Of a stretch of 64,000 bases of DNA, positions 33,330 through 59,649 are shown piece by piece (within the stretch, counting starts at the first letter, position 1; each line of letters starts with the position of its first letter). Both the position numbers and the translations under genes were made by a program. Where the stretch lies: positions 1-64,000 of the IMG/VR virus record IMGVR_UViG_3300009068_000031; one strand, given 5' to 3'. Under the pieces are notes generated by a model. It was not told the DNA's origin and made no database searches. It worked only from the letters and a program-made list of their open reading frames with translations. The stretch is from an uncultured virus (IMG/VR IMGVR_UViG_3300009068_000031) (lineage: Duplodnaviria > Heunggongvirae > Uroviricota > Caudoviricetes).

Positions 33330-33337
33330 CTTTTAAT

Positions 33338-34237: not shown

Positions 34238-34270
34238 ACCATTTCACCAATCACCAAAATCTAATCAATC

Positions 34271-34315
34271 TAAATATCAACAGCAGTTGACTTTTGGCTG
34301 AAAATCTTATATAAT
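34271..34315 (+). promoter_or_regulatory. Tandem late (TAAATA, 34271-34276) and sigma70-type (TTGACT 34287-34292, 17 nt, TATAAT 34310-34315) promoters
   Basis: Read directly; AGGAG SD precedes the ORF at 34339. Confidence 0.7.
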
Positions 34316-34338: not shown

Positions 34339-34671
34339 ATGCTAAACATGGAAGATAGAATCAGCACAGCCAATCAAATGGAAAATTTTAATAATCAGCT
34401 GCAGTTATTAAAAGACAAATTTGTTGACAGCAATATTTTGTTTTATCAAGGACATCAGTTCACAATCCAAGGTGATTTGTTGAGTTTGTGCAAGTCATAC
34501 ATAGACCTACACAGAACCAAAGATGTGGTGTTGTTGGATGATTATCAAACACCAGTGTTGATAAGTGATCTAACAGAATTCAATGACAATGCTTGGCACA
34601 CATATCAAACCAATCTCAATCAATATCACACAGAATATCAAACACTGATAAAAAACAAAGGAAACATTTAA
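34339..34671 (+). CDS. Hypothetical protein (weak resemblance to DUF4376-type tail accessory proteins)
   Basis: ORF with SD and promoter; first gene of the glycosyltransferase/radical SAM operon. Confidence 0.5.
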   Translation: MLNMEDRISTANQMENFNNQLQLLKDKFVDSNILFYQGHQFTIQGDLLSLCKSYIDLHRTKDVVLLDDYQTPVLISDLTEFNDNAWHTYQTNLNQYHTEYQTLIKNKGNI

Positions 34672-34674
34672 GCC

Positions 34675-35526
34675 ATGAAATCTCAAGGCATTGTGATGTT
34701 TGCTCACAATAATGAAACAGTTGATTATGTGAAGCAGGCTATTTTTGCTGCTGTGCAGATCAAAAAACATCTGCGTCTGCCAGTGACCCTGATCACTTCC
34801 AATCAAGCACATCTAAATAACAAATATAAAAAGCAATCCACGGTGTTTGATCAAGTGATAGATATCAGTGAGCATCAAACTCTTCAGACTCGAGATTTTT
34901 ACAATGGCATGGAACACAAGATCAAAGATGTATGGAAAAATCATTTAAGATCCACTGCTTATGAACTCACTCCATATGACGAAACTATTGTGATGGACAC
35001 TGATTACATAGTGGGCAATGATAATTTACTCCGATGTTTTCACAGCAAAGAAGATTTTTTAATACATCAAAAGTCCATTTACATCAATTATTTTAATCAA
35101 CCTGAATGGAAAATCAAATACATCAGTGAAACCGGCATGGAGATGTATTGGGCCACAGTGTTTTATTTTAAAAAAACTCCCAGAGTCAAACAGTTGTTTG
35201 ATCTGATTGCACATATTAAAAATCATTGGGACTTTTACAGATTCACATGGCAGATACATGAACCAAATTTTAGAAATGATTTTGCTTTCAGCATGGCCAT
35301 ACACATGTTGAATGGATATTGCAAAGGTGCATGGCCACAACGCTTGCCAGATTCGTTGTATTATATCACTGACAGAGACAAAGCAGACAATTTTGATCAG
35401 AACTGCTGGACTGTTTCATTGTACAACACACAAGGATACACAAAAACTTTGGCCAAACATATTAATCTGCACGTGATGAACAAATTCAGTTTGGACCACA
35501 TTATTGATGAGGAGTTTTCCAAATGA
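34675..35526 (+). CDS. GT-A fold glycosyltransferase (GT8/nucleotide-diphospho-sugar transferase-like)
   Basis: RSTAYELTPYDETIVMDTDY with a DxD motif; FRNDFAFSMA. Confidence 0.7.
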   Translation: MKSQGIVMFAHNNETVDYVKQAIFAAVQIKKHLRLPVTLITSNQAHLNNKYKKQSTVFDQVIDISEHQTLQTRDFYNGMEHKIKDVWKNHLRSTAYELTPYDETIVMDTDYIVGNDNLLRCFHSKEDFLIHQKSIYINYFNQPEWKIKYISETGMEMYWATVFYFKKTPRVKQLFDLIAHIKNHWDFYRFTWQIHEPNFRNDFAFSMAIHMLNGYCKGAWPQRLPDSLYYITDRDKADNFDQNCWTVSLYNTQGYTKTLAKHINLHVMNKFSLDHIIDEEFSK

Positions 35527-36371
35527 TAGATCAAGGGTTCTGTGTGTTTGCACAGCAAAATGAACAAGTGGACTATGTGAGACAGGCACAGGCATTGGCC
35601 ATGAGTATCAAAACGCACATGCCTCACAGCAAAGTGTGTTTGATCACAAATGTTAACGTCACAAAAACTGTGTCCTCAGTGTTTGATCATGTGGTGGATA
35701 TTCCTGGCATGGATGAAGCAGTGGACCAAGATTGGAAAATACAGAACAGATATAAAATTTACACAGCCACTCCCTTCAAACATTCAATAATATTGGATGC
35801 AGATATGTTGGTGTTGAGTGATATCAGTCATTGGTGGAAGTTTTTAAAAAATTATAAAATGTATTTCACCAGTGCAGTTAAAAATTATAGAGATGAATTC
35901 AGTCACAGTGATCACTATCGCAAAACTTTCACAAGCAATAGTCTGCCCAACCTTTATTGTGGTGTGCATTACTATCAAAGATGCAAAGAAAATGATCAGT
36001 TTGTAGAACTTTTGCGAGATATAGTAAGAAATTACGCAGTATTCTATAACAGATTCACTCCCAAACACACTCAAAAATGGTGCAGTATGGATGTGAGTGT
36101 GGCACTGGCCAGTAAATTATTAGGCATCACTGAAAAAATTACCAGCCGAACACCTTACGTCACGTTCACTCATATGAAACCTCATCTACAAGACTGGAAA
36201 ACAGTGCCGGATCACTGGATGAAAAAAGTAAATGTGTATCATGACATGGAAGGTCATATAAAAATTGATAATTTTCGTCAACGAGGAGTGTTGCATTATG
36301 TGGAAAATGAATTCTTAACTGATGAACTGTTTGCAATCATTAAAAAAAAATATTATGAATCAACCCAATAA
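35523..36371 (+). CDS. GT-A fold glycosyltransferase, paralogue of the preceding gene
   Basis: NRYKIYTATPFKHSIILDADM with a DxD motif; FTHMK; ATGA coupling to the upstream gene. Confidence 0.7.
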   Translation: MIDQGFCVFAQQNEQVDYVRQAQALAMSIKTHMPHSKVCLITNVNVTKTVSSVFDHVVDIPGMDEAVDQDWKIQNRYKIYTATPFKHSIILDADMLVLSDISHWWKFLKNYKMYFTSAVKNYRDEFSHSDHYRKTFTSNSLPNLYCGVHYYQRCKENDQFVELLRDIVRNYAVFYNRFTPKHTQKWCSMDVSVALASKLLGITEKITSRTPYVTFTHMKPHLQDWKTVPDHWMKKVNVYHDMEGHIKIDNFRQRGVLHYVENEFLTDELFAIIKKKYYESTQ

Positions 36372-36933
36372 CCATATGTACGTAACATTTGACCCAGAAT
36401 CAGGAAAAATCTTAGGTTGTTCAGGCAGCCAAAACAACAACAGTCTGGCCATAGACACTGCTTTGGGTGAAAAATTTATTATAGGTATGGAGTCTATACA
36501 CAAGTACAAAGTGATATATCTCAATGGTCAATATCAAATTCAAAAAGATGGAGTATTAAACTCAGTGGAAAATGTGATTCATTCTAAAAAAACTGAAATA
36601 ATCAATCACAACGTTTATAAAATTCCCAATAAAATTAAAAATCACAGTGGCATACAAATAAAATTACATTTGAATCAAAACAAAGTTGAATTCACAGCAG
36701 ACAAAACATTTAAAAAAACTTTAGAAACCATAGTTTCCAAAGAAAATCATCGTAACCACAAGTTTTATTGTTGCAAATCCAACGATGCCACACAACTGAT
36801 TAAAATATTAGATTTGAATCTTTATGAACTGCTCACTCAAGACAGTGTGCAGATAGATGTGAATGCCGAGACAAACATGGACATTTACTGTAGAAAAACT
36901 TTTGATTATTCTATTGAAAGGATTTATGCATAA
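36355..36933 (+). CDS. Hypothetical protein
   Basis: ORF fills the operon between the two glycosyltransferase pairs. Start set at ATG 36355. Confidence 0.55.
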   Translation: MNQPNNHMYVTFDPESGKILGCSGSQNNNSLAIDTALGEKFIIGMESIHKYKVIYLNGQYQIQKDGVLNSVENVIHSKKTEIINHNVYKIPNKIKNHSGIQIKLHLNQNKVEFTADKTFKKTLETIVSKENHRNHKFYCCKSNDATQLIKILDLNLYELLTQDSVQIDVNAETNMDIYCRKTFDYSIERIYA

Positions 36934-37834
36934 GATTGCTATCAAAGATTGCGATGTGGTATTTTTGAGCTTTGATGAGCCCAATGCTGATAAAAATTAT
37001 GCAGATTTAAAAAGAAAAATACCTTGGGCCAAAAGAGTTCACGGCGTGGAAGGATCAGATGCTGCACACAAAGCCTGTGCTGCTGTGTCTGACACAGAAT
37101 ATTTTTTAACTGTGGACGGAGACACACAACTAGATCCTAAATTTCTCAATATTCAACTGGATCTAAACAGCATGGGCATGGATCACACATATATTTTCAG
37201 CTGGTGTGGACATACCAACGTGAATGGATTAAAGTATGGCAATGGCAGTTTAAAATTATGGACCAAAACTTTTGTGAATGAGATGAAAACACATGAAAAT
37301 TTTTCTGGTAAGGATAATAATGAGATAGAATTTTGTTATTTTGATAAACTGTTTCAATTCAATGAAAACTATTCCACCAGTTACATCAACAGCACACCCA
37401 AACAAGCATGGAGAGCTGGATTTAGAGAAGGTGTTAAGATGAGTTTGTATAAAAATTTTAAAATACAGTCGTTGGATCAACTATGGTGGCAGAATTATCA
37501 CAGATTATTAATCTGGATGACTGTGGGTCAGGATGTGGAACATGGCATTTGGGCCATTGCAGGAGCCAGAGAAGGTTGTTATCGAACACTTTGCACCCAA
37601 TGGGATTTCAAACAAGTGAGAGATTTTAAAGTTTTAGAACAATTATGGATCAGCACCAGCAACAATAACAGTATGAATGCACAAGATGCCAAACAAAAAT
37701 GTATCTCTTTGGGTAAAACTATTAAAGAACGATTCCAAATGGAGTTTCCTACGGAACCATACGATGCAGAAAGCAGTGAATTTTTCAAAAAGGTGTATAT
37801 CAATTCACCCAGAACCATAAGAAAGACTGTATGA
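36926..37834 (+). CDS. GT-A (GT2-like) glycosyltransferase-like protein
   Basis: VFLSFDEPNAD...RVHGVEG..AAHKA...YFLTVDGD (DxD), NGLKYGNG and AWRAGFREGVK. SD AAAGGA before ATG 36926. Confidence 0.6.
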   Translation: MHKIAIKDCDVVFLSFDEPNADKNYADLKRKIPWAKRVHGVEGSDAAHKACAAVSDTEYFLTVDGDTQLDPKFLNIQLDLNSMGMDHTYIFSWCGHTNVNGLKYGNGSLKLWTKTFVNEMKTHENFSGKDNNEIEFCYFDKLFQFNENYSTSYINSTPKQAWRAGFREGVKMSLYKNFKIQSLDQLWWQNYHRLLIWMTVGQDVEHGIWAIAGAREGCYRTLCTQWDFKQVRDFKVLEQLWISTSNNNSMNAQDAKQKCISLGKTIKERFQMEFPTEPYDAESSEFFKKVYINSPRTIRKTV

Positions 37835-38538
37835 TGCACGATATATTTTTTATCAGTTACAATGAACCCAATGCAGATCAAAATTATGCTCTGTTGAAAC
37901 AAAGATTTCCATTGGCGCAAAGAGTTCACGGAGTAAAAGGCATTCAACAGGCACATATCAAAGCTGCCACACAGAGTTTGACTAAAATGTTTTGGGTGGT
38001 GGATGGTGATGCAGTGATTGAACACAACTTTATGTTTGATTATGAAGTGCCTGATAAAGATATGGATGCTGTGCATGTGTGGAGAAGTCGAAATCCTATC
38101 AATGAACTGGAATATGGTTATGGCGGAGTGAAATTATTGCCCAAAAGACTCACTATGAACATGGATCCCAACAGAATAGACATGACCACTAGTATATCTA
38201 ATAGATTTAGAGCCATGCATGAAGTATCCAACACCACTGTGTTCAATACAGATCCATTCAACACATGGAAAAGTGCTTTTAGAGAGTGTGTCAAGCTCAG
38301 CAGCAAAGTAATCGATCGTCAAGAAGACAAGGAAACTGAAAAAAGATTATTGATTTGGTGCACAGTGGGAGATGATAAACCATACGGAGAGTATGCCGTT
38401 GCTGGAGCACTGGCAGGCAGAGTGTATGGCTCAGACAACCGAGATAATTCAGACACTTTGAGATTGATCAACAACTTTGAATGGTTGCGATTGGTGTTTG
38501 TGGGACAATTTCCACACATGGAGAAAGAAATATTATGA
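37831..38538 (+). CDS. GT-A (GT2-like) glycosyltransferase-like protein, paralogue of the preceding gene
   Basis: FFISYNEPNAD...RVHGVKG..QAH...FWVVDGD, YGYGGVKL and WKSAFRECVK. Confidence 0.6.
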   Translation: MMHDIFFISYNEPNADQNYALLKQRFPLAQRVHGVKGIQQAHIKAATQSLTKMFWVVDGDAVIEHNFMFDYEVPDKDMDAVHVWRSRNPINELEYGYGGVKLLPKRLTMNMDPNRIDMTTSISNRFRAMHEVSNTTVFNTDPFNTWKSAFRECVKLSSKVIDRQEDKETEKRLLIWCTVGDDKPYGEYAVAGALAGRVYGSDNRDNSDTLRLINNFEWLRLVFVGQFPHMEKEIL

Positions 38539-39536
38539 TAGATTCCAACATTCCATTTGATAAAATTATAAACTTTGGTCAACGTACCATGCTGGACAGC
38601 AAATTATTTTCTGTGAGTTGGATCTTGGCTCGTTTTTGCAACTATGATTGTTCTTACTGCTGGCCTTATGCCAAAAGCAAACAGAAAGATCACAGACCAC
38701 TGTCAGTTTACACACAAGTGGTGGATGAAATCAAACGTCAGGCTAGACTGAATGGATTCACTGACTATCATTTCAGTTTTTCAGGTGGAGAACCCACTGC
38801 CTACAAAGATTTTTTACAATTGATACAGCATTACAGTGCTGATACTGCTCCAGAATATCAGAGTATTCACATGACCACCAACCTAAGTCCTTCGGAAAAA
38901 TGGTGGGAAAGATGGTTGGAAGCCACAAAAACATTGAACCGCAGAAGTATCACTGCCAGCTTTCATGCTGAATTCGCTGATGAACAAAAATTTGGAGATA
39001 AAATATTGCTGTTGATGAAGCACAATGTGTTTGTCACAATCAATCAAGTGATGGTGCCCGAAAGATTCACAGAATACTATGATAGATGTGCAAGACTCCA
39101 CTCCAGAGGTATCAATGTCACACTGAAACCACAGAGTGATCCCACAGCAAGTTTTATTATTGAAGGTTATACTCGAGATCAACTGAATACTTTACAAACA
39201 GGCTTCCCTCAACGCATTCAAGAAGGTGAAAATTACAAAGACTTGTTTCAAATTGAGATGCAAGATGTTCAAGGCAATAAGTATTATATGGATCAAGCAG
39301 AACGATTCAATGCTTTTGGGTTCAATAAATTCAAAGGATGGCACTGTAATGCTGGATATCAAAGTTGTATCATTAGAGAACCAAACGGAGAAGTCAAAAG
39401 AAGTTACAGTTGTCATGATGAACCACTGGGCAATATAGAACAAGGATTTAAATTGTTTGATAAACCAAGAGTTTGTGTGACTCCCACTTGTGTGAGTTCA
39501 GCAGATTCAAAAATACCCAAGGCCAAACATGTATAG
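38535..39536 (+). CDS. Radical SAM enzyme with C-terminal Twitch/SPASM-like cysteines (group A)
   Basis: CNYDCSYC, SGGEPT and FKGWHCNAG...CVTPTCVSSAD. Start set at ATG 38535. Confidence 0.85.
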   Translation: MIDSNIPFDKIINFGQRTMLDSKLFSVSWILARFCNYDCSYCWPYAKSKQKDHRPLSVYTQVVDEIKRQARLNGFTDYHFSFSGGEPTAYKDFLQLIQHYSADTAPEYQSIHMTTNLSPSEKWWERWLEATKTLNRRSITASFHAEFADEQKFGDKILLLMKHNVFVTINQVMVPERFTEYYDRCARLHSRGINVTLKPQSDPTASFIIEGYTRDQLNTLQTGFPQRIQEGENYKDLFQIEMQDVQGNKYYMDQAERFNAFGFNKFKGWHCNAGYQSCIIREPNGEVKRSYSCHDEPLGNIEQGFKLFDKPRVCVTPTCVSSADSKIPKAKHV

Positions 39537-40518
39537 ATATCAAGATATAAGAGATATTCATTTGGAAATCACCAGCAAGTGTCAAGCCAAGTGCCCCATG
39601 TGTCCTAGAAGAATCAGTGGAGGACCAATAAATCCATTTATTAAATTGGACGAAATAACTTTGGGCGTATTCAAACAATGGTTTGAACCAGATTTCATAA
39701 AACAATTGGAAAGTTTATTCATGTGTGGTAATTTGGGAGATCCCATCATATCCAAAGACACATTGGAAATATATCAATACTTGCGTGAACTAAATCCCAA
39801 CATTAGATTGGCCATGCACACCAACGGCAGTGCTAGAGATACCGAATGGTGGAAAAGATTGGCTCAATTGAAAGTAAAAGTGACATTTGGTATTGATGGT
39901 TTGGCAGATACCCATCATCTTTATAGAATCAGTACAGATTTCAATAAAATAATTGAAAATGCTCAAGCATTTATCTCAACAGGTGGAGTGGCCAAATGGC
40001 ACATGTTGGTGTTTGCTCACAATGAACATCAAATTGAACAGTGTAGAACAATGTCCAAAGACATGGGCTTTGTGGATTTCTCAATCAAACACACTTCTAG
40101 ATTCAAACAGGATTATTTACAAGTGATTGATGACATGGGTAGACCCACACACAGAATCAAACCCACTCAAACCAGTTTGGATATGATTCCGTTGTCTGAA
40201 GCCGCACAAAAACAAGTCAAACCACACATTGCTTGTAAAGCACAAAAATACAAACAGTTGTATGTGAGTGCTTGTGGTAATGTGTCGCCTTGTTGTTGGT
40301 TGGATATGGAATGGATACCACCCATGCAAGAATCTAGAGTGGATTATATGGAAAAAATTTCTAAATTTCCCAACTTACATCGCGAAACATTGAAAGAAAT
40401 ATTTGATAATGGATTTTTTTCAAAAATAGAAACACAATGGAGCACAGTGGGATTGAAAGAATGCACCAAGCAGTGTGGTTCATTTGATAAACTAGGAGCA
40501 CAATTTGTTGAAAATTAA
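39529..40518 (+). CDS. Radical SAM enzyme with C-terminal SPASM/Twitch domain
   Basis: CQAKCPMC, GNLGDP, HTNGS, FGIDG and C...GNVSPCC...CTKQC. Confidence 0.85.
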   Translation: MYRYQDIRDIHLEITSKCQAKCPMCPRRISGGPINPFIKLDEITLGVFKQWFEPDFIKQLESLFMCGNLGDPIISKDTLEIYQYLRELNPNIRLAMHTNGSARDTEWWKRLAQLKVKVTFGIDGLADTHHLYRISTDFNKIIENAQAFISTGGVAKWHMLVFAHNEHQIEQCRTMSKDMGFVDFSIKHTSRFKQDYLQVIDDMGRPTHRIKPTQTSLDMIPLSEAAQKQVKPHIACKAQKYKQLYVSACGNVSPCCWLDMEWIPPMQESRVDYMEKISKFPNLHRETLKEIFDNGFFSKIETQWSTVGLKECTKQCGSFDKLGAQFVEN

Positions 40519-41119
40519 TATACAAGACGTTTTATTTTGGATGGATGCTATCAGACAATCTGATGACAGATATCGCACATTGGAAAGTTTCTGGAAAGGT
40601 CAAATCAACAGCAAAGTATGGTTGATTGAACAATTAAAAAAATTACCCAGAGCACACAGCATGGATATTTTGATTTGTGGTGGGTGGTATGGAGTGATGG
40701 CCACACTTTTGTTCAACAGTGATCTGTATGTGAACCAAATAACCAGCATGGATATAGACAGCAAGTGTGAAAACACAGCCAACACCATGAACAAACAGTA
40801 TGAAATGTCTGGCAAATTCCATGCTATTACTCAAGACATGCTCACTTATAAAGATTACAGTCGTTATGACATGATTATTAACACAGTGTGTGAACATTTA
40901 ACGCCAGAACAATACAATGAATGGTTGAAATTAATACCTGAGGACAAAATTATTGTGTGCCAAAGCAATGATTTTGTGATTCCTGAACATGTGAACCCTG
41001 TGAAAGATTTGAATCAGTTTGTGAGCAATAGTAAACTGTATCCTATTGTGGAGCCCAGCGAATTACAAACAGAAAAATACAAAAGATTTATGATTGTAGG
41101 AAAGAAAAATGAAAAATAA
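40505..41119 (+). CDS. Class I SAM-dependent methyltransferase
   Basis: ILICGGWYG motif I, SMDID and YDMIINTVCEH; TTG start. Confidence 0.7.
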   Translation: MLKINIQDVLFWMDAIRQSDDRYRTLESFWKGQINSKVWLIEQLKKLPRAHSMDILICGGWYGVMATLLFNSDLYVNQITSMDIDSKCENTANTMNKQYEMSGKFHAITQDMLTYKDYSRYDMIINTVCEHLTPEQYNEWLKLIPEDKIIVCQSNDFVIPEHVNPVKDLNQFVSNSKLYPIVEPSELQTEKYKRFMIVGKKNEK

Positions 41120-48124: not shown

Positions 48125-48137
48125 AGTATGGACAGAG

Positions 48138-48181
48138 TATTTATCGTAATTAACTGCCCACATAATTTTTCACGATAAGTA
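48138..48181. promoter_or_regulatory. Divergent late promoters (minus GATAAATA 48145-48138; plus GATAAGTA 48174-48181) flanking dyad motif copy 3 (ATTAACTG-CC-CACATAAT, 48149-48166)
   Basis: Read directly in the intergenic region between the ATGs at 48124 (-) and 48187 (+). Confidence 0.6.
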
Positions 48182-48186
48182 CAGCT

Positions 48187-50027: not shown

Positions 50028-50028
50028 T

Positions 50029-51913: not shown

Positions 51914-52983
51914 TTTATTATCTTTCTTTTTGAACCTTTTCTTTTAACATCTAGTGTGCAGCAATGAGTTCCACCTTCCCAATATACTTCGTGACGTTGT
52001 GGCACCACATGACAATTGATGTTGAAAGTCTTTAAATATTGAAATAGTTCAGGTAAATGTTTGCCAAACAATATGTTTTTTGAATCTAAAATTAATACGT
52101 TTAAATCAAAACAAACTTCTTGTGTGTATCCTCGCCAATTAGCCAGATATTGCTCCAACCAAGCATTGGAATATCTGCCATCTGTGGCAGTGTAGTCTTT
52201 GATATAGTTGTCTATCACAACTTTGCCAACGTAGTTTTTAACATCTATTAATTTTTTATTTCTTAATGCCAAAGGCACCCATTCTATGCCAGCATGTATT
52301 ACTGTGTCATCGTCTATTAATAAAAATCCATGATCAATATGTCCGTAGTTTTTAAACACAGTATCACCAGTGTTTTCAATCAGTGTATAATCCTTACAAT
52401 TACGTTTGAACCATTCCAAACCAAAGCTAGAACCAGGACCTCTACTGTTATACAGCAAAGAATCTCCTGCTTTGAATATGGCAGCTGTGTGCCATAGCAA
52501 TTGATCTGATAATTTTTCTTGATAGATAGAGTTAGATATGTACCAATTTTCATCTATCTGAGTGTTGATTAGTTTGGGCAGAGGCTGTGAAATCCAATTG
52601 TATCCTTCTTTGAATAATTCATTAAAAATTTTCACATAACTCAACGAATCAAAATATCTATCTGTGTAGCTGGTGTAAGTTTGTATAATTTGTCTATCCA
52701 AAATCAGATATTGATCTCTAGGTACCATGGGGCACATGGGAAAATTCACTTTAAAATTAGGCATCTCTATAGATTTTGTGTATTTTAGTACTTCTGGTCT
52801 ATGCACTTTGATGTTAGAGTTTTTTATAAAATCTGCAAGATTGTTAAGGTCTTGTTTGGTTTCTTCCAGTATTCTGTTGAAACTTGATATGCTTTCTTTG
52901 GGTAAAAAATGATCCATATCTCCAGGAGCATAACAATCTCCCACAATTACTTCTTGTAATGGATCAAATTCTGTGTGTATCAT
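51910..52983 (-). CDS. Amidinotransferase (glycine/inosamine amidinotransferase family)
   Basis: EFDPLQEVIVG, PRD, GHIDH, DLNVL, and GGTHCCTLDV containing the catalytic Cys. Confidence 0.8.
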   Translation of the reverse strand: MIHTEFDPLQEVIVGDCYAPGDMDHFLPKESISSFNRILEETKQDLNNLADFIKNSNIKVHRPEVLKYTKSIEMPNFKVNFPMCPMVPRDQYLILDRQIIQTYTSYTDRYFDSLSYVKIFNELFKEGYNWISQPLPKLINTQIDENWYISNSIYQEKLSDQLLWHTAAIFKAGDSLLYNSRGPGSSFGLEWFKRNCKDYTLIENTGDTVFKNYGHIDHGFLLIDDDTVIHAGIEWVPLALRNKKLIDVKNYVGKVVIDNYIKDYTATDGRYSNAWLEQYLANWRGYTQEVCFDLNVLILDSKNILFGKHLPELFQYLKTFNINCHVVPQRHEVYWEGGTHCCTLDVKRKGSKRKIIN

Positions 52984-53534
52984 ATTAAGTATTTGTGATT
53001 AATAAACATCTGTAAAGAATATCGAATCACTTCTTGGTTGGTTATTGCTGTAACTGCGTGATCAAGATCTTTGGAATTAATTATAACTCTATTACCTATG
53101 GGTTCAACAAACTTGCCCTGTGTATCATTTTTATTTTCTTTGTAAACAAATAATCCTCCGTCATTTGTTTGCCAAACATCATTTAAGAAAATTGTTATGC
53201 CTATGTAATCCAATTCATCTTTTTCAGCATACAATCCATCCAAATGCCATCTAGCATTGTAGGGAGCTCTATTGACATGATAGCGTAGCATACTGTCGTT
53301 ATCATCCATCACTTCAGCAGACAACAACTTATTTGCCACTAAATTTTTTAATACAATAATTTTAGCAGGACCATTTAAAAAATAATAATTGCTATTTTCT
53401 AATCCTACATGATCTTTTTCTGTGCTCAGGTCGGATTTTTTAATAGCACTGATTTCGTTAGCTATTTCGTTTTGAATGGCTTTTTTTAGTTCTGATAGCG
53501 TTGCAGAGTCAAAAAAATTATCAATTATTTTCAT
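52980..53534 (-). CDS. Fe(II)/2OG oxygenase (prolyl-4-hydroxylase-like)
   Basis: IIDNFF, WHLD, IFLN..W...DGG, P.GNR and HAVT...RYSL. Confidence 0.75.
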   Translation of the reverse strand: MKIIDNFFDSATLSELKKAIQNEIANEISAIKKSDLSTEKDHVGLENSNYYFLNGPAKIIVLKNLVANKLLSAEVMDDNDSMLRYHVNRAPYNARWHLDGLYAEKDELDYIGITIFLNDVWQTNDGGLFVYKENKNDTQGKFVEPIGNRVIINSKDLDHAVTAITNQEVIRYSLQMFINHKYLI

Positions 53535-54636
53535 ATGATTCTAAATTTTGTTTAAGCACAGTAAAATATTCTTCAGTAGCATTCAAAGGCACAATATATA
53601 AATTTTTATAATTGCCTTTGCGTATCATATAGAGGCAACCAAAACGATTCAGTATTTCAAAACCTGTGCTTTGAATAGTTTTAACAGCAGTGTTTTGAAT
53701 TGTTTGATGGTTGTTCAATACCTGTTCTTTTTCCAGTATGTCCATATATTTTAAAGCACTGTTGATGCCTGACAGAGAAAAATTATAGGTGTATCCATGA
53801 TCCCAATCAAAGTTTGTGGGCAGTGTTTGATGTATTTTTTCATTGTACATGGTAATGCTCAAAGGAAAATATCCACCTGTGATGGCTTTGCCCATGGTGC
53901 AGATATCAGGTTGTATGGGCAAGTGTTTCCACCCAAAATAATTACCTGTTTTGCCTCCCCCTATAAAAATATCATCCATAATGATCAACACATCAAATGT
54001 TTGTTGAACATGTTTTAATTTTTGCCAAAACTCATTTGAGTTTGGAGTCATGTCCCCACCGTATGAACATGGTTCTACTATCACACTCATCACTTTGGTC
54101 CAATCCACTTGATCTATTTCAAAATCTCTGGCAAGTCTTGTTGCACCATGATACCTATCCATGTTGTACATGGGATTGATCATCAGTAGATCTCCAAGAT
54201 TATTGTTAAGGAAAGTGCTGCCGTGATAACTGCCCTCAAAACTTATCACTTGTTTTTTGTTATTGTTTTTCTTCACATGATGATAGGCAGAAGATAACTT
54301 TATTGCTCCTTCGTTGGCATCACTGCCTGACAATGCGAAGAAGCTTCTATATCCGCCACTCATCTTAAACAATTTATTGCTGAGTTCATAACTTGCATGG
54401 TTTAATTTTAAATCTTCAGCATGCACAATAGATTCTGCTATTTCTGGTTTGATATTTTTCATAGCATCACACACATATTGAATGATATCTGTTCTATCGA
54501 ATCCCAAAGTAAAGCAACTATAATGCAACAAAGGATCAACCTTTTTAACGCCATTCATAACAGTACCAAATTGCCAATGTTTGTCTGCTGGATGTGTGGG
54601 CTGCTGTCTGCCAGGTATAAGTCCTTTGAGAGTCAT
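53521..54636 (-). CDS. Class III PLP-dependent aminotransferase
   Basis: SGSDANEGA, SYHGST, IVEP, DDIFIGGGKTG, GKAITGGYFPLS and HGYTY. Confidence 0.85.
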   Translation of the reverse strand: MTLKGLIPGRQQPTHPADKHWQFGTVMNGVKKVDPLLHYSCFTLGFDRTDIIQYVCDAMKNIKPEIAESIVHAEDLKLNHASYELSNKLFKMSGGYRSFFALSGSDANEGAIKLSSAYHHVKKNNNKKQVISFEGSYHGSTFLNNNLGDLLMINPMYNMDRYHGATRLARDFEIDQVDWTKVMSVIVEPCSYGGDMTPNSNEFWQKLKHVQQTFDVLIIMDDIFIGGGKTGNYFGWKHLPIQPDICTMGKAITGGYFPLSITMYNEKIHQTLPTNFDWDHGYTYNFSLSGINSALKYMDILEKEQVLNNHQTIQNTAVKTIQSTGFEILNRFGCLYMIRKGNYKNLYIVPLNATEEYFTVLKQNLESYENN

Positions 54637-54644
54637 AGCAATAA

Positions 54645-55181
54645 TTATAGTATTTCAAATTGTAATTGATCGTATGTGATGGCTGAAGTGTTATCAAAAA
54701 CTTTTTTGGTTTCCACGCTGAAACAACAGTATCCGTTGGCATCTATGAGATCCTTAAAATTTATGTTTTGATGTTGTCCTTGATGATATTCCTTGCCCAC
54801 TGAGTGAGTGTATTGATTACACTTCACTGTGATACGATAGTCATCTGACACATGTTCACTGCCTTGCACACTGTTGAGTCTGATCAACTGCACATGACTT
54901 TGATACAGATAATTTATTGGTTTAAGACTCCATATAATTTTGGCCTGCTCTTCCACTGAGTGAAATTTAATATCATAATTGAATTCAAAAACGTTGATAT
55001 TATCGAACACAATGGATTTTTCTAATATTATAGGAAGATTCTCCTCTGCATCATCAATGTTGGCAAATATTTTTTGTGCGTTGTGATACACATTCAACTT
55101 GTTGATATAATTGTCATGTTGACGAGACATGTATTTTTTATTAAATTCTTTGGGGCAGGTAATACGCACTGTTCTATTCAT
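54645..55181 (-). CDS. Hypothetical protein
   Basis: Operonic ORF; start set at ATG 55181, overlapping the upstream gene end. Confidence 0.5.
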   Translation of the reverse strand: MNRTVRITCPKEFNKKYMSRQHDNYINKLNVYHNAQKIFANIDDAEENLPIILEKSIVFDNINVFEFNYDIKFHSVEEQAKIIWSLKPINYLYQSHVQLIRLNSVQGSEHVSDDYRITVKCNQYTHSVGKEYHQGQHQNINFKDLIDANGYCCFSVETKKVFDNTSAITYDQLQFEIL

Positions 55182-55791
55182 GAATATAATCTTTGAATAT
55201 TTGCACAGCTTCTTCAAATTGTAGATGTGTGTTATCTAATTTTAACAGAGTAAAACACAGTGTCCAACGATCTTCAGTCATGTTGGGATTGAATGTGCTG
55301 TGCAGTTGTCCTATGTTCATCAAACTGGGTCTATTGATCACTTGCTCATGCACCAAATCACAATCTTCTTCACGTGCTGAGTAAGCATCTGTGACCACTA
55401 TATCGGGCACCACACCCGCAATTAATATATGACTATTGTCTGGTTTGACCGGTTTTAAATATTCAGGTTGTTTCACATGCCACCATCTGGTCACACTGTT
55501 GTCTGGTCCCCAGGTAAAATTAATTTTTACAGCATTGCTTATGGTAGAGGTATCATTGTGCAGAGGTATCTTTCCACCATTTGTGGGAGTATAAAATCCT
55601 TCAATAAGATTGGATACTTTTAAATCGAAGGACTCGATCCATTTGATCACACTTTGGTCAATTGATTCTGGCAAAACATATATCATATTAGGATGATCAT
55701 AACTTTTATTAAAACATCTTGGTTTTAAATATTCAAATGGTAATTTTAAGTATCTGTGATAATAATTTTGATCAGACATAGTTTTATTCAT
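55174..55791 (-). CDS. Putative Fe(II)/2OG-type oxygenase (LHSTFN group)
   Basis: IPLHND (HxD), KINFTWG and GQLHSTFN..RWTL. Confidence 0.6.
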   Translation of the reverse strand: MNKTMSDQNYYHRYLKLPFEYLKPRCFNKSYDHPNMIYVLPESIDQSVIKWIESFDLKVSNLIEGFYTPTNGGKIPLHNDTSTISNAVKINFTWGPDNSVTRWWHVKQPEYLKPVKPDNSHILIAGVVPDIVVTDAYSAREEDCDLVHEQVINRPSLMNIGQLHSTFNPNMTEDRWTLCFTLLKLDNTHLQFEEAVQIFKDYIHE

Positions 55792-56407
55792 GTATTATGT
55801 CTTTAAAAATTTCTAATGCTTCAAAAAATTGTAATCTTTTATTATTTTTCATTAATGTAAGAGTAAGACCCCATCGATCTTCACTGCCATTATTAAATGT
55901 ACTATGCAATCTGCCTGCGTTAATTATGCTTGGTTTAGATAAAACTTTTTCATACAATAAATTACAATCTTTTTCTTCATAACACAGTGCTCTGTCCGCA
56001 TCATCAAATTCATAAACATACGTGTCAGGATTGAAAATTTCAGCATGCGGGCCTCCTTGATCTGGTCGCATCTTTGAAGAAACTGCATCAATTTTAGGCT
56101 CCCACCATCTAGTGAAACTGTTGTCTGGCCCCCAAATAAAAAGTAATTTGGTCATGTCCGACAATGTATCTGTATCGCTGTGTATGCCAATAGATCCATT
56201 ATTAGGTGCAGTGTAAGTTCCTTCAAAAAATTGAGATGTGGAAATATTAAAACTATCCAACCATTCAAGGATTCTTTTATCAACATGCTGTTTAGCTATT
56301 TCAAAAGTCATACCACCACTTGACCAGTTAGGCACTTTTAATGTATCAAAAATTTTTGGTCTATCTATGGTAAAAGGTAGATTTATAAAACGATGAAAGT
56401 TATTCAT
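55784..56407 (-). CDS. Putative Fe(II)/2OG-type oxygenase, tandem paralogue of 55174..55791
   Basis: GIHSD, WGPDNSFTRWW and GRLHSTFN..RWGL. Confidence 0.6.
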   Translation of the reverse strand: MNNFHRFINLPFTIDRPKIFDTLKVPNWSSGGMTFEIAKQHVDKRILEWLDSFNISTSQFFEGTYTAPNNGSIGIHSDTDTLSDMTKLLFIWGPDNSFTRWWEPKIDAVSSKMRPDQGGPHAEIFNPDTYVYEFDDADRALCYEEKDCNLLYEKVLSKPSIINAGRLHSTFNNGSEDRWGLTLTLMKNNKRLQFFEALEIFKDIIHE

Positions 56408-56408
56408 A

Positions 56409-57215
56409 TTAATAATTTTTTAAATGATCGATGCCTAATTTTTTTCTAAATGCATCGGTGAACACACAGTCAATTCTCAATCCATACTCTTGTTCACGAT
56501 TAATTTCTCCACCATGCCAGTCTTGATCGTTCCAGAAAGCTGCATTGGCATTGATGTAGGTTTTGTTTTTTGTTTCAGGATCCCAAATATAAAATCCTCT
56601 TTTGGTGTTATAACGTATGTGTATGAACTCATTGCGATGATCACTGTATCCTTGTTGATCACCCAGTTTGCCATCTAGATCTCTGTGTTCAAATGGTTGT
56701 CCATCATGTTCACAGTGAAAAAATATCACTCTGCCTATTTGACTGATAATGTTTTGATCCACAAGATTTTTAACCCATGTGACCAATCCAGGAAAATGTT
56801 TGCTTTCCTCTGTGAGATGTCTTTCAGAATTTCTATTATCCCAATCGCCTTCATTCCATAAAAAATAATAGATGTATGGATCTTTGGCACCCAACACTGC
56901 TTTGAGGTAGCGTGTGAATTGATTTCTTGTGCGGTAATCTTTGATATTGGCATACAAATCATCACCGTTTTTTCTAATAGGATGATCTATGGGCAGTGCA
57001 AGATATTCTTTCACAGCCTGATAAATTGGTTTCCAATTCAATTGATAACTCATGTCTTGTAGATTAAATCCTGGCGACATCCATGTGCCTTCTTTGGCAT
57101 ATTCTCTAGCCAAAGCAAATCCTCGGCAAATTTCAGGATGTAATTTCCTAAAACCTTCTATATCCAAATGTGGAGTTAAATCAATATATGGTCGGCCACC
57201 AATTCCTCTTATCAT
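56409..57215 (-). CDS. Putative Fe(II)/2OG-type oxygenase (WHGG group)
   Basis: FEHRD...EFIH...FWNDQDWHGG...LRID. N-terminus (RGIGGRPYIDL) resembles that of 50029..50784. Confidence 0.55.
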   Translation of the reverse strand: MIRGIGGRPYIDLTPHLDIEGFRKLHPEICRGFALAREYAKEGTWMSPGFNLQDMSYQLNWKPIYQAVKEYLALPIDHPIRKNGDDLYANIKDYRTRNQFTRYLKAVLGAKDPYIYYFLWNEGDWDNRNSERHLTEESKHFPGLVTWVKNLVDQNIISQIGRVIFFHCEHDGQPFEHRDLDGKLGDQQGYSDHRNEFIHIRYNTKRGFYIWDPETKNKTYINANAAFWNDQDWHGGEINREQEYGLRIDCVFTDAFRKKLGIDHLKNY

Positions 57216-57220
57216 CCAAA

Positions 57221-57236
57221 TATTTAGTGTTAAATA
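57221..57236. promoter_or_regulatory. Back-to-back late promoters (minus ACTAAATA 57228-57221; plus TAAATA 57231-57236)
   Basis: TATTTAgtgtTAAATA in the 39-nt divergent intergenic region; the minus copy is 5 nt from the ATG at 57215. Confidence 0.6.
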
Positions 57237-57254
57237 TTGAGAGCAAAATAATTT

Positions 57255-57809
57255 ATGACTTATAAATTGGTACCATATTCTGAATCGATTGATTTAACAG
57301 AATTTTATCTTCAAGCAGAATCCAAAGGATTCAAAAACAACAGTAATAAAAAAATGTTGGTGGACAGCATCTCCACAGAAAAAAAATGGAAAATTTGGTT
57401 GCTTAAATACAACAATAAAATAGTGGGGTCTACTGGCGCTCATTCTTTTCCTGAAATGGGTGAAAATAGTTTTAGAATATTGTGTAGAACTTGTGTGTTC
57501 ACAGATCAATTGCCTATCTCAAGATTAAGAACCAAAACAGGCATACTCACGCATCAAAGCGTCACTCCACAATTTTTTATTCCCACTTGTATTGAATGGG
57601 CTGGATCACAAAATAATCTTTATGTGACCACCAATGAAAATAGTGAAGGCACTCAACGTCTAGTGCATAATATTTGGGCACCCATGTTGGCAGAATCTAA
57701 ATGTTTGAAAAAAATCAATCAAATAAAATACAGAGGCACAAATCAAACTGTGTGGCAATTAAATGTTCAAGAATTTTACAAACAATTGGAAAGATATCCT
57801 AGATGGTAA
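57255..57809 (+). CDS. GNAT-like acyltransferase
   Basis: WLLKYNNKIVGSTGAH...FRILCRTCV...LYVTTN follows a GNAT topology. Confidence 0.45.
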   Translation: MTYKLVPYSESIDLTEFYLQAESKGFKNNSNKKMLVDSISTEKKWKIWLLKYNNKIVGSTGAHSFPEMGENSFRILCRTCVFTDQLPISRLRTKTGILTHQSVTPQFFIPTCIEWAGSQNNLYVTTNENSEGTQRLVHNIWAPMLAESKCLKKINQIKYRGTNQTVWQLNVQEFYKQLERYPRW

Positions 57810-58492
57810 CTGACTACGTATACTATTACAATAATGTGCCAGGCAAAGGATTGTGCAGGAACAATCTTGTGTACACCAGTCTTATCAATCAAAATAAAAC
57901 AGAATTTGTGCAATGGTTTCACAACGACACAGAGTATCACAGAGATCAAAACGAAGTGATGGATCCCATCCTAATGGAACAAAAATGGCAGAGAGAAGTG
58001 GATATGCTGCTGATGATGCATCACAATTTTCCAGAACACATTCCTGACATATTGGAACTGGACTATGACAATAAAAAAATTATCTTTGGCGTTGATGGCG
58101 TGGATTTTTGGGAACAGAGTCACACAGTGGGCATGGATGCAGTGCTGCCCAATTGGCGTGAACAGATGTTGGAGATTCTGCAAGCACACAAAACATTAGG
58201 ATTATACAAATACAGTTTACACCCCAGCAGTTATTTTGTGGTGGAAGGCAAATTAAAAAGTGTTAACTATTTCTTTTGTTATCACAAAAGCGAACCACTT
58301 ATCACTGTGCAGGATCATTTCAGTCACATATCCCAAGACAGGAGAACAGTTTTACTGCCCAAAATGCATGAACTAAATATTGACATGCACACTCCCACAG
58401 ACTTTGCCAGCTTGCAGATATTGTGTTTGGAAAGTTTTAGAAACAATTACCCTAAAGATTTTATAGATGCTGCCATAGCACTGTACAAATAA
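57803..58492 (+). CDS. Protein-kinase-like fold protein, paralogue of 48851..49486
   Basis: NNLVY, WQREV, IPDIL, PNWREQ and YKYSLHPSSY..LKSVNYF. Confidence 0.5.
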   Translation: MVTDYVYYYNNVPGKGLCRNNLVYTSLINQNKTEFVQWFHNDTEYHRDQNEVMDPILMEQKWQREVDMLLMMHHNFPEHIPDILELDYDNKKIIFGVDGVDFWEQSHTVGMDAVLPNWREQMLEILQAHKTLGLYKYSLHPSSYFVVEGKLKSVNYFFCYHKSEPLITVQDHFSHISQDRRTVLLPKMHELNIDMHTPTDFASLQILCLESFRNNYPKDFIDAAIALYK

Positions 58493-58494
58493 TC

Positions 58495-59643
58495 ATGGAA
58501 GATATAAAAACTACTAGCTTGTGTGATATCTGTTATAGACACTGTGAAGCAGTGAGAGAAACAAGAGATTCTGGAGTGTATCTAACCAAGACTTGTGCTG
58601 AGCATGGCACACAAAACATTAGAATAGAAAGAGACGTAGAATTTTATAAGCAATTACACTATGATGTTTCAGGATACACCATTCCTCATGGGATCATGGT
58701 AGAAGTCACTGACCGATGTAATTTAAATTGTCCGCACTGTTATCATAAACCTGACAATAAACAAGCTGATAGACCCATTGAACAAATATTGGATCAGATT
58801 GAACATAGATTTCATGCAGAATCTGGTGCTGTGATATTGGCTGGTGCTGAACCCACTGTGCGCAAAGACTTGCCAGAATTAATTAGACAAATCAAAGCAT
58901 TATTGAAAAGATTAAACAGACCTGAAGACGTGTGCATATTGACCAATGGAGTAAAGTTGTCTGACAGAGCATGGGTGAAAGAAATCGCTGCTGCTGGAGC
59001 CACCATGGTGATGATTGGTTTGAATCATCATTCCTATCAAGGAGCAACTGTGCATCAAAAACAACTGCAAGGCATAGACAATTGTATTGCTGAAGGAATT
59101 TTTGTGTACTATGTGGGATATACATTGGAAAGTTTGGATCATATGGAACATGTTCTGGAAGAAATACAATCTTTAGGACATAAGAGTTGGCAATACAGAA
59201 TAAGAGCCGGATCAGACATAGGTAGATCTCCTGATGAACCTAGATTTTATCTCAGTGATCATGTCAAATTGATCAAACAAATTTGTGATCGCAAAGGGTG
59301 GACTTGGGAAAAACAACCTGCTGATGATAATCTTTATCATTACATGGTGAATATCAATGGCATAACTCATAGAATTATACAATGGAGTGATGTTAAAACC
59401 ATTGACTTGGAACAATTGAAGTGTGGACCTTGGTGTGATTTCGTGCCAGGCAAACCAGTCACTAATTTTTTACATCAAATTATGTTGCGTGATGCTGCTG
59501 TGAATAAAAAAATGATACTGTATGATACTGTGCCAGCATGTTATGGTATTCAATCAAAAAATATAGATTACAAACCTTCTCAATGGACCAATCGCAGTTG
59601 GGCTGACTGTAAAATTAAACAATCCAAAACAATTCAAAAATAA
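58495..59643 (+). CDS. Radical SAM enzyme with N-terminal CxxC...CxxH metal site (MJ0619/Tes/COG1964-like N-terminus)
   Basis: TTSLCDIC...VYLTKTCAEHG, EVTDRCNLNCPHC, AGAEPT and LTNG. Confidence 0.8.
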   Translation: MEDIKTTSLCDICYRHCEAVRETRDSGVYLTKTCAEHGTQNIRIERDVEFYKQLHYDVSGYTIPHGIMVEVTDRCNLNCPHCYHKPDNKQADRPIEQILDQIEHRFHAESGAVILAGAEPTVRKDLPELIRQIKALLKRLNRPEDVCILTNGVKLSDRAWVKEIAAAGATMVMIGLNHHSYQGATVHQKQLQGIDNCIAEGIFVYYVGYTLESLDHMEHVLEEIQSLGHKSWQYRIRAGSDIGRSPDEPRFYLSDHVKLIKQICDRKGWTWEKQPADDNLYHYMVNINGITHRIIQWSDVKTIDLEQLKCGPWCDFVPGKPVTNFLHQIMLRDAAVNKKMILYDTVPACYGIQSKNIDYKPSQWTNRSWADCKIKQSKTIQK

Positions 59644-59649
59644 AATTAA

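Follow-up and report, generated by a model that had tools for sequence, protein, structure and literature searches.

A tail-fibre-linked island of radical SAM enzymes, oxygenases and glycosyltransferases in an uncultured jumbo phage, with a possible role in sugar tailoring

The DNA considered here, the window, comprises the initial 64 kb of a viral contig of 77,629 bp (IMG/VR record IMGVR_UViG_3300009068_000031) that is rated ~20% complete. Between positions 34339 and 59643 it carries an island of 32 open reading frames (ORFs; g01–g32) in five strand blocks (+13, -3, +6, -7, +3), in which neighbouring ORFs mostly overlap, by 4–71 nt, and the widest spacers measure 23 nt (g16|g17) and 39 nt (g29|g30). 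An initial annotation had recognized about 30 tightly coupled genes, nearly all tailoring enzymes, at this place, and its coordinates are correct. Judged by gene content among relatives, the island is two conserved phage modules fused together, plus a swappable cassette: module A (g01–g06) with four genes of GT-A glycosyltransferase type, module B (g07–g22 and g29–g32) and the cassette (g23–g28). All island enzymes are predicted to be soluble and cytoplasmic, and none of 33 proteins (the island plus the flanking g33) has a hydrophobic 19-mer reaching 1.6.

Gene content of the island

Eight genes encode radical S-adenosylmethionine (SAM) proteins, with PF04055 scores of 39.2–70.7 bits against a cut-off of 29.5 bits and exactly one intact CX3CX2C in each, which upholds the number given by the initial annotation. 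They are the following.

38481–39536, +: g07, radical SAM (PF04055 52.6 bits; CX3CX2C at residue 53)
39529–40518, +: g08, radical SAM with C-terminal SPASM (PF04055 and PF13186)
41109–42377, +: g10, N-terminal-twitch radical SAM (NF033640, 323.3 bits)
42361–43272, +: g11, radical SAM (PF04055 62.9 bits; NCBIfam matches all below cut-off)
43262–44242, +: g12, radical SAM, paralogue of g16 (PF04055 40.6 bits; BLASTP 1.2e-39 to g16)
44858–46276, -: g14, N-terminal-twitch radical SAM (NF033640, 389.5 bits), the best-conserved marker of the island
47081–48163, -: g16, radical SAM (PF04055 48.6 bits)
58495–59643, +: g32, radical SAM with an N-terminal HMPTM-type zinc ribbon, Tes/TrsS-like (PF04055 70.7 bits, PF23545 45.6 bits)

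Two of the eight, g10 and g14, belong to NF033640 (N_Twi_rSAM; cut-off 170 bits), and the remaining six score at most 57 bits with this model or give no match. SPASM/twitch domains occur in g08, g10 and g14; in g10 and g14 the SPASM region (residues 9–69 and 33–111, respectively) lies N-terminal to the core (120–297 and 162–344), and Cys33, Cys51, Cys108 and Cys111 of this twitch/SPASM-like region are invariant in alignment A7. Matches to the other NCBIfam radical SAM models, including all maturases of ribosomally synthesized and post-translationally modified peptides (RiPPs), MoaA, viperin and QueE, fall far under their cut-offs, and g32 likewise scores well under those of TrsS (97 bits) and Tes (71 bits). 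Copies of NF033640 above the cut-off number 2–8 per contig in five larger relatives, which have 7–12 radical SAM matches each, and are found in none of 14 control genomes. No paper on the NF033640 family was found in the literature. An apparent 386-bp insertion in g14 relatives (match of 1802 versus 1416 bp) was set aside as probably a second alignment piece running into the next radical SAM gene, since g14 ends at 11416 with a g16 homologue behind it.

The other island genes are listed below; A-numbers denote alignments, and percentages after hhalign are probabilities.

34339–34671, +: g01, 110 aa; no family match; a 35% identical homologue heads module A in the relative G001
34675–35526, +: g02, GT8-like GT-A candidate with DxD motif; 32% identical to ORF353 of Ralstonia phage RsoM2USA
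35523–36371, +: g03, paralogue of g02 (BLASTP 2.5e-15; hhalign 99.3%); phrog_1903; 31% identical to RsoM2USA ORF352
36322–36933, +: g04, 203 aa; no family match
36863–37834, +: g05, predicted GT-A enzyme, paralogue of g06 with an N-terminal extension (hhalign 100%)
37831–38538, +: g06, predicted GT-A glycosyltransferase; D58-x-D60 invariant; structural model with pLDDT 91.5
40505–41119, +: g09, methyltransferase-like; weak Methyltransf_25 match (E 0.08 for the window protein, 4.9e-4 for one homologue)
44200–44892, +: g13, SGNH-like candidate; G18-D19-S20, G49 and N207-H208 invariant in A10; no Pfam or PDB match
46263–47084, -: g15, PP-loop ATPase, QueC-like but not QueC; SGGADS and C-terminal CGECFWC (CxxCxxC); phrog_1550, 2e-5
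48187–48870, +: g17, Fe/2-oxoglutarate (Fe/2OG) beta-hydroxylase of the Asp/Asn-hydroxylase (cupin) family; H78-x-D80...H122 and R132 invariant
48851–49486, +: g18, minimal protein-kinase-like fold; model pLDDT 93.2
49479–50027, +: g19, oxygenase candidate by motif; H108-W-D110, H138 and H165 invariant in A4; no notable PDB match
50029–50784, +: g20, oxygenase candidate, paralogue of g29 (BLASTP 1.5e-10; hhalign 99.1%)
50781–51362, +: g21, 193 aa; no match, and no metal-triad motif in A12
51359–51913, +: g22, short NAD(P)-Rossmann protein; Epimerase 22.4 bits over residues 3–64 only
51910–52983, -: g23, amidinotransferase, by profile A9 against PDB; GGTHCCT motif
52980–53534, -: g24, Fe/2OG oxygenase; 2OG-FeII_Oxy_3 32.7 bits (cut-off 27)
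53521–54636, -: g25, class III (pyridoxal-phosphate, PLP) aminotransferase; Aminotran_3 147.6 bits; NCBIfam equivalogs all below cut-off
54645–55217, -: g26, 190 aa; no match (alignment A13)
55174–56407, -: g27 and g28, paralogous oxygenase candidates by motif (BLASTP 3.8e-53); H78-x-D80...H164 and R175 invariant in A8
56409–57215, -: g29, oxygenase candidate; H177-R-D179...H234 invariant in A2; no PDB match
57255–57809, +: g30, weak GNAT lead; no Pfam or PDB match; an Atlas cluster with 20% Acetyltransf_1 members at rank 21
57803–58492, +: g31, kinase-fold paralogue of g18 (BLASTP 4.3e-9; hhalign 98.8%)

The four GT-A genes named by the initial annotation fare unequally. The structural model indicates a GT-A fold for g06, and paralogy extends it to g05; g02 and g03 are candidates by their DxD motif, D108-x-D110 (LDADM), which together with H266 is invariant in alignment A11. 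The top Foldseek matches of g06 are all GT-A enzymes, with SunS first and RmlT, ppGalNAc-T, WrtF, TarS and PBCV-1 A64R (rank 33, E 8.9e-4) among the others.

Seven Fe/2OG-type oxygenases had been proposed, and family-level matches back two of them, g17 and g24; the other five (g19, g20, g27, g28 and g29) have an invariant HxD...H, match no Pfam family or PDB sequence, and are carried here as leads. Searches of PDB sequences with family profiles brought no usable match for g29/g20, g19, g30, g05/g06, g13 or g27/g28, and a match of the g27/g28 profile to Tako8 was judged spurious. For g29, the nearest named Atlas cluster is viral Asp_Arg_Hydrox (score 0.96). Among 23 non-radical-SAM families, hhalign (234 of 253 pairs) linked only g02/g03, g05/g06, g18/g31 and g20/g29, and thus, such pairs aside, the oxygenase candidates are not detectably interrelated at a probability of at least 70%. 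The profile of g17 and 18 homologues matches Cpz10 (PDB 7V4F) at E 3.5e-16; Cpz10 is described as the beta-hydroxylase of caprazamycin, acting on a glycyluridine nucleoside intermediate (PMC9814697).

The aminotransferase g25 and the amidinotransferase g23 both stand as annotated, the latter with profile matches to HsvA (1.9e-28), SxtG (2.1e-22), AGAT (2.2e-19) and StrB1 (6.1e-19). Its C-terminal GGTHCCT, invariant in A9, is presumably the catalytic Cys motif of amidinotransferases. The two kinase-fold proteins are likewise retained, g18 through its model and g31 through paralogy; the top Foldseek matches of g18 are Bud32, CDK2, BRAF, the CurKC kinase domain (of a lanthipeptide synthetase), WbdD and RIO2, and its family profile finds TTK in PDB at 2.9e-4. 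Other assignments hold in part. The QueC-like ATPase g15 has the PP-loop and the CxxCxxC but scores below the QueC cut-off (10.9 against 22 bits), and among six homologues one reaches 28 bits, over its C-terminal 60 residues only. The methyltransferase (g09), SGNH (g13) and GNAT (g30) calls correspond to weak matches or motifs, and the short-chain dehydrogenase/reductase call for g22 to a weak match of its N-terminal 64 residues and nothing beyond, with comparable Epimerase matches in three of six scanned homologues. The annotation had also noted what is missing, and in agreement with it neither the island nor the 77.6-kb contig has a match to the thymidylate synthase family, to tRNA-guanine transglycosylase (TGT)/DpdA, or to nonribosomal peptide or polyketide synthases.

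Conservation, fibre-gene linkage and promoter-like elements

All records compared are genome fragments, and the contig itself and five relatives are 20–59% complete. Relatives of g14 were found in 261 IMG/VR stretches, of which 80 loci, 59–100% identical to g14, were kept; many of these loci are truncated, and cross-matches between radical SAM paralogues inflate some of the counts. Homologues of g09, g10, g12, g14 and g16 are present in all 80 loci, those of g07 and g11 in 79, of g08 in 74, of g05 and g06 in 61, of g15 in 57 and of g17 in 53, followed by g18, g19, g22, g29 and g31 (28–39 loci) and by g23–g28 (9 loci); gene order and orientation are shuffled between relatives. Against 50,697 phage records, megablast with 24,962 island bases gave zero matches, and so did g07, while g14 matched only RsoM2USA and two Vibrio phages, and g05 only its RsoM2USA homologue (41% identical).

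Module A lies behind baseplate/tail-fibre genes in all three genomes checked, namely the window, G001 and RsoM2USA. In G001 it occupies 72.4–79.7 kb, right behind the tail-fibre genes, with homologues of g01, g02, g03, g05 and g06 and two NF033640 genes. In the cultured Ralstonia phage RsoM2USA, ORF353–347 correspond to g02, g03, g05, an NF033640 gene, g06 and g09, and directly follow baseplate genes and structural ORFs 364–356, which are reported as virion-confirmed (PMC8504454). Module B of G001 is found 66 kb from module A, at 145.4–163.5 kb, where homologues of g07–g11, g13–g19, g22 and g29–g31 are bordered by ThyA/dihydrofolate reductase (DHFR) on one side and by a g33 homologue at 174.7 kb on the other. 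In seven of eight cases (the window, G005, L017, L035, G001, G002 and G003, with G004 as the exception) module B is bordered by a g33-type gene, which in G002 touches g29- and g31-like genes. Each module therefore has its own fibre-gene neighbour, and in the window the two are joined, filling the gap from the tail fibres to g33. The conservation of neighbourhood that the initial annotation had proposed to examine is thus found, as both modules keep fibre-gene neighbours even when separated.

Module B of G001 also contains a full-length nucleoside-diphosphate (NDP)-sugar epimerase/dehydratase, and UDP-glucose dehydrogenases and a cytidylyltransferase are encoded elsewhere in this relative. For the assembly of Fe-S clusters G001 (L083–L093) encodes a ferredoxin, IscU/NifU and two IscA-like proteins of its own, which fits a phage with 12 radical SAM enzymes to run. 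Other genes of this relative encode a heme oxygenase with bilin reductase, ribosomal protein S21, ClpB, DnaJ, ClpS, peptide deformylase, TctA/TctC, a porin, OmpA, a sulfotransferase and an APS-kinase-like protein.

The source phage is a T4-like/Rak2-like jumbo phage: G001 (216 kb) encodes T4-type Gp23 and Gp20, and its capsid protein shares 67–70% identity with its counterparts in Rak2-like jumbo phages (Phosso, GAP32 and CBB among them). To the left of the island lie a gp46/47-like nuclease pair, a gp55-like late sigma factor and gp53-, gp5-, gp25- and gp6-like baseplate genes. The flanking features of most concern are these.

2496–3320, -: gp55-like late sigma factor (phrog_12791, E 6.5e-74)
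27565–34237, +: four tail-fibre-type genes (672 aa with Collar domain, Pfam 65 bits, then 742, 478 and 299 aa), the upstream flank
59650–60798 (to 60839 with its box), -: g33, Mtd_N fibre-like protein (Mtd_N 38.3 bits), the downstream flank

PHROG matches of the upstream flank proteins are to tail-fibre, tail and virion-structural families. The claim of fibre and virion genes on both sides accordingly stands upstream, with baseplate and tail-fibre genes, and narrows downstream, where fibre-like character is seen in g33 only. Collagen-like GXY runs, considered as a hydroxylation target, were found in none of 17 flanking proteins.

Promoter-like elements were located at the head of the island and between its divergent units.

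34270–34315, +: island head, CTAAATA (34270–34276) followed by TTGACT-N17-TATAAT (34287–34315), 24 nt before g01
48138–48186, both directions: divergent g16|g17 junction, inverted pair of late-like boxes, TATTTATCG ... CGATAAGTA
57216–57254, both directions: divergent g29|g30 spacer, CTAAATA 6 nt before g29 and TTAAATA 19 nt before g30

Late-like boxes ([A/C/G/T]TAAATA or TAAGTA) are thus found at five of five operon heads. Both elements of the island head are retained before the g01 homologue (54% identity) in L010 and L033, and TTAAATA is retained before the g30 homologues of L008, L017, L049 and L035. For the g16|g17 junction, a comparison of 23 unique regions upstream of g17 homologues shows both boxes in 17; these regions are related by descent and not independent, and the background for the forward box is 0.17% of random 30-mers. 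The presence of a gp55-like late sigma gene provides a rationale for T4-late-like ATAAATA boxes. Of the seven copies of this heptamer in the window, six precede the start of a gene on their own strand by 2–34 nt, and the genes concerned (gp25-like, 1138 aa, 201 aa, 478 aa, g33 and the ORF at 3381) include at least five structural ones; the remaining copy falls within g16, 25 nt from its annotated 5' end. The box before the ORF at 3381 is only 2 nt away, which makes the annotated start doubtful. In the fibre flank, ATAAATA stands 22 nt before the gene at 31841 and CTAAATA 9 nt before that at 33338. The strict T4 late box TATAAATA is found once in the window (60832–60839), 34 nt before g33, where three would be expected, and a reading of the island as not late from this scarcity was dropped given the shorter, conserved boxes at operon heads.

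The sigma-70 site before g01 is one of three strict consensus sites in the window, and such a consensus (TTGACA-N17-TATACT) also precedes the gp55-like late sigma gene. A generic scan for sigma-70 sites and terminators over 44000–61000 stayed at chance level (64 found versus 68.7 expected). Taken together, the motifs suggest a late type of transcription for each of the five units, with an early type in addition for the first. Late regulation, as the initial annotation had it, is therefore plausible from the boxes at operon heads, and is qualified by the sigma-70 consensus at the island head. Short stretches of g01, g03, g07, g08, g13, g14/g15, g15, g16 and g22 are matched at 95–99+% identity by metatranscriptome contigs of two lake studies (X19, X20); these contigs carry neither strand nor timing and may reflect DNA carry-over, and were not used as evidence of expression.

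Counterparts of the island also exist on bacterial chromosomes. A search with the g14/g10 alignment, one genome per species, gave 173 relatives, and 68 of the 77 loci listed bear Bdellovibrionota-type labels, many on contigs of 0.1–3 Mb and one in an isolate genome. There a sub-core of g05/g06, g07, g08, g09 and an N_Twi radical SAM gene is adjacent, with identities of 43–49% for g14, 49–55% for g07, 36–40% for g08, 37–44% for g05/g06 and 29–35% for g09. Unlike the phage island, these clusters are without the g17–g19 and g29–g31 families, and have several GT2 enzymes in place of the GT8-like pair; three scanned loci are GT2-rich and hold GNAT, SIS, QueC-like and Asp/Arg-hydroxylase-like genes as well as extra NF033640 copies. 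Outside this phylum, L159 (108 kb, a contig of a metagenome-assembled genome (MAG) labelled Gammaproteobacteria) has homologues of g02, g03 and g05 and two N_Twi radical SAM genes in a row, a module-A-like block. L094 (labelled Thermoplasmata, 3.5 kb; g14 74% identical) and L095 (Crocinitomicaceae, 4.9 kb; 59%, with g17–g19 neighbours) look like phage fragments binned into cellular MAGs.

Several other features of the contig deserve mention. Between the baseplate wedge and tail-fibre genes, a single ORF of 4895 aa (12242–26929, +) has CBM_5_12 and FG-GAP matches; at the counterpart position RsoM2USA is reported to have a virion-confirmed protein of 2541 aa (PMC8504454). At 62377–63642 (-), a DUF2201 metallopeptidase/VWA protein, whose PHROGs label of HNH endonuclease conflicts with its Pfam domains, adjoins a MoxR-type AAA ATPase (L001 3670–4773, -). 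Beyond the window, L001 8007–12189 (contig 68007–72189) holds a row of weak radical SAM (28.8 bits), GTP cyclohydrolase I, HIT protein and phosphoribosyltransferase genes, which may represent a deazapurine- or pterin-type nucleotide pathway of its own; PTPS/QueD is also present in G001. Metagenome runs on freshwater and lakes, dated 2017–2024, contain DNA near-identical to 44000–53999 of the window, with at least half of the sampled words in 17 runs (two of them possibly the source) and 20 rows from 17 studies in total, so that the phage is persistent in lakes.

A candidate sugar pathway and its rivals

The reading that we favour, at a probability of about 0.4, is that a cytoplasmic pathway builds an unusual sugar or a short glycan, which is then attached to fibre proteins. 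Module B, with its eight radical SAM enzymes, Fe/2OG hydroxylases, two kinase-fold proteins, QueC-like PP-loop ATPase, methyltransferase-like protein and short Rossmann protein, and the cassette, with its amidinotransferase, PLP aminotransferase and three further oxygenase-type proteins, would act on nucleotide-sugar-like precursors by oxidation, amination or amidination, methylation, phosphorylation and radical rearrangement. The four GT-A-type transferases of module A would then transfer the unusual sugar(s) to a phage-made cytoplasmic acceptor, most probably virion fibre proteins, that is, the upstream tail fibres and/or the Mtd_N-like g33. A sugar or glycan pathway is proposed because of the four GT-A-type genes, the GT2-rich bacterial sub-core, the NDP-sugar enzymes of relatives, a set of tailoring enzymes that extends to ester handling and the lack of membrane machinery; fibre proteins are the most probable acceptor because two independent fibre-gene linkages are conserved and late-type boxes are present; and the acceptor is expected to be cytoplasmic because hydrophobic segments are lacking throughout. 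What is observed are the enzyme families, their conservation, the fibre-gene linkage and the boxes, and from these we infer a sugar as substrate, the sequence of reactions and the acceptor. A more specific version is held a little more tentatively: a widespread aquatic jumbo-phage clade would encode a multi-step pathway for a new, heavily edited sugar, installed on the fibres as a receptor-binding or shielding glycan, with the cassette varying the decoration between strains. To the same tentative degree, the N-terminal-twitch radical SAM enzymes, shared with predatory Bdellovibrionota, would perform radical chemistry on that sugar.

A number of points weigh against this proposal. The glycan on virion proteins is deduced here from genes, and the fold matches of g06 are weak (E ~2e-4, TM 0.33–0.43), with acceptors that range over peptide, protein, teichoic acid and glycan. 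The nearest solved relatives of g17 (Cpz10) and of g23 (HsvA, SxtG, AGAT and StrB1) act on free small molecules, which also leaves unsupported the argument of the initial annotation that Asp/Pro-type hydroxylases point to peptide modification. The adjacency to fibre genes may merely mark a recombination hot spot, as in the hypervariable regions described for T4-like phages (PMC7029224). The strong sigma-70 consensus at the island head is of the type that precedes the late-sigma and gp47-like genes, and part of the island may be expressed early. For the Bdellovibrionota clusters, no paper on their function was found in the literature. Furthermore, g33 has about nine (T/S)GN(V/L)(T/S)-type pentapeptide repeats, rich in N-x-S/T, at residues ~88–128; as a conserved target these sequon repeats were rejected, being retained in G005 and absent from the G001–G003 homologues.

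The solved relatives from small-molecule pathways (Cpz10; HsvA, SxtG and StrB1) would equally suit an island that makes a free aminoglycoside-, aminocyclitol- or nucleoside-like glycoside acting on the host, competitors or defence and not attached to the virion. The class III aminotransferase and the kinase-fold, methyltransferase-like and SGNH-like proteins suit natural-product tailoring, all proteins are soluble, and GFO/IDH/MocA and Zn-ADH oxidoreductases are encoded 15 kb downstream on the same contig. We nevertheless consider such a product unlikely, as family scans found no exporter, self-resistance gene or scaffold synthase in the island, the fibre-gene linkage of both modules is conserved, late-type boxes are common to the island and structural genes, and the bacterial counterparts are GT2-rich like glycan loci. 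Those same GT2-rich clusters, together with the GT8-like look of g02/g03 and the variable cassette, which at 9 of 80 loci suits diversifying selection at a surface, could speak for remodelling of host envelope glycans (O-antigen, lipopolysaccharide or capsule) against superinfection, and this is how GT8-rich, radical-SAM-containing islands beside the tail fibres of pelagi- and cyanomyophages have been read (PMC7029224). Remodelling of the envelope is nonetheless rather less probable still, for no predicted membrane segment is found in any of the 33 proteins, family and hydrophobicity scans of the island found no undecaprenyl-phosphate transferase, flippase, polymerase or ABC exporter, and the late-type boxes imply expression shortly before lysis.

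Hypermodification of phage DNA or RNA bases against restriction, by glycosylation or 7-deazapurine-type chemistry, appears improbable. Phage glycosyltransferases are classically presented as acting on DNA (PMC7029224), and Campylobacter phages with 11–12 radical SAM genes are on record (PMC2853527). Moreover, g15 is QueC-like, GTP cyclohydrolase I, weak radical SAM and phosphoribosyltransferase genes lie at contig 68.0–72.2 kb, and PTPS/QueD is located 6 kb from module B in G001. However, g15 is below the QueC cut-off, TGT/DpdA (PF01702) is found in none of six incomplete records (the contig and its five relatives), and the sub-core is shared with GT2-rich bacterial clusters. There is no PF00303 match in the contig, and the single thymidylate-synthase-family gene of G001, at 354 bits over its full length and beside DHFR, is canonical and ThyA-like. 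Late-type boxes also set the island apart from the DNA-modification genes of T4, which are early or middle. An equally small chance is given to RiPP-like maturation, in which SPASM/twitch radical SAM enzymes, kinases and glycosyltransferases would act on a peptide or a segment of a structural protein through cross-links, phosphorylation/elimination and S- or O-glycosylation. It would draw on the SPASM/twitch domains of g08, g10 and g14, on the resemblance of the g18 model to, among many kinases, a class III lanthipeptide synthetase kinase domain, and on SunS, a glycocin S-glycosyltransferase, as the top fold match of g06. Yet there is no small precursor ORF, with spacers of at most 39 nt, family scans of island proteins gave no PqqD/RiPP recognition element (RRE) match, NCBIfam models of RiPP maturases score 18–52 bits against cut-offs of 300–850, and the amidinotransferase, aminotransferase and Cpz10-like enzyme indicate small substrates. 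Of the glycan or RiPP-like coat envisaged by the initial annotation, the sugar half is thus kept, on the GT-A genes and the GT2-rich sub-core, and the RiPP half is left without support.

Should the favoured glycan pathway prove true, it would be the most elaborate virus-encoded glycan-tailoring system in a phage and would give NF033640, a large radical SAM family without a known reaction, its first biological role. It would also bear on host recognition and defence evasion by giant phages in lakes and seas, with relatives in at least 261 viral contigs, and connect phages with a glycan locus of predatory bacteria that has gone unexplored. One operon set with eight radical SAM enzymes and about seven oxygenases holds the promise of new enzymology also in case a free metabolite or a modified nucleic acid is made, and part of the question is testable in the cultured phage RsoM2USA, as it carries module A.

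Comparison with known systems

The closest published setting is the host-recognition cluster (HRC) of pelagimyophages and cyanomyophages, a hypervariable island of the structural region with tail fibres, GT8-type glycosyltransferases and sugar-nucleotide enzymes (Zaragoza-Solas et al. 2020, PMC7029224). Genomes with such clusters are also noted to encode radical SAM proteins and an Asp/Asn beta-hydroxylase, and the glycosyltransferases are proposed to modify the host O-chain and so block superinfection by other phages (PMC7029224). The trait of a hypervariable island with tail fibres and glycosyltransferases in the structural module is present here as well, with g23–g28 as the variable part, and G001 resembles HRC phages in its S21, peptide deformylase and Asp/Arg-hydroxylase genes. 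The present island differs in belonging to a Rak2-like jumbo phage, in its denser block of eight radical SAM enzymes and about seven oxygenases, and in its two modules with their own conserved neighbours; moreover, its lack of membrane proteins does not favour the O-chain modification proposed for the HRC. The T4-like Campylobacter phages CP220 and CPt10 are reported to have 11–12 radical SAM genes of unknown function, of which an exchangeable module contains five (Timms et al. 2010, PMC2853527). These phages have no detectable homology to the island in searches of the phage records with g14 and g07, and the account of their radical SAM genes describes no oxygenase or glycosyltransferase partners (PMC2853527).

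With the pathways of caprazamycin and streptomycin the island shares g17 (Cpz10-like) and g23 (StrB1, 6.1e-19), in the company of aminotransferase, kinase and methyltransferase genes. Unlike in those antibiotic pathways, no other pathway-specific enzyme is recognized, and the context is one of phage structural genes and not of a biosynthetic gene cluster with resistance and export. A likeness of another kind exists with virion glycosylation of the PBCV-1 A64R type, in which soluble, virus-encoded GT-A enzymes also adjoin structural genes; mycobacteriophages have another such virion-glycosylation system. In contrast to the island, neither the PBCV-1 nor the mycobacteriophage system has an array of radical SAM enzymes or oxygenases, and in both the modification of virions has been demonstrated experimentally, whereas here it is deduced from genes.

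Multi-radical-SAM phages have been known since 2010, and glycosyltransferase-rich hypervariable islands at tail fibres since 2020. No description was found in the literature of a core centred on NF033640, of a split into glycosyltransferase and radical-SAM-oxygenase modules tied to fibre genes, or of a kinship with Bdellovibrionota clusters.

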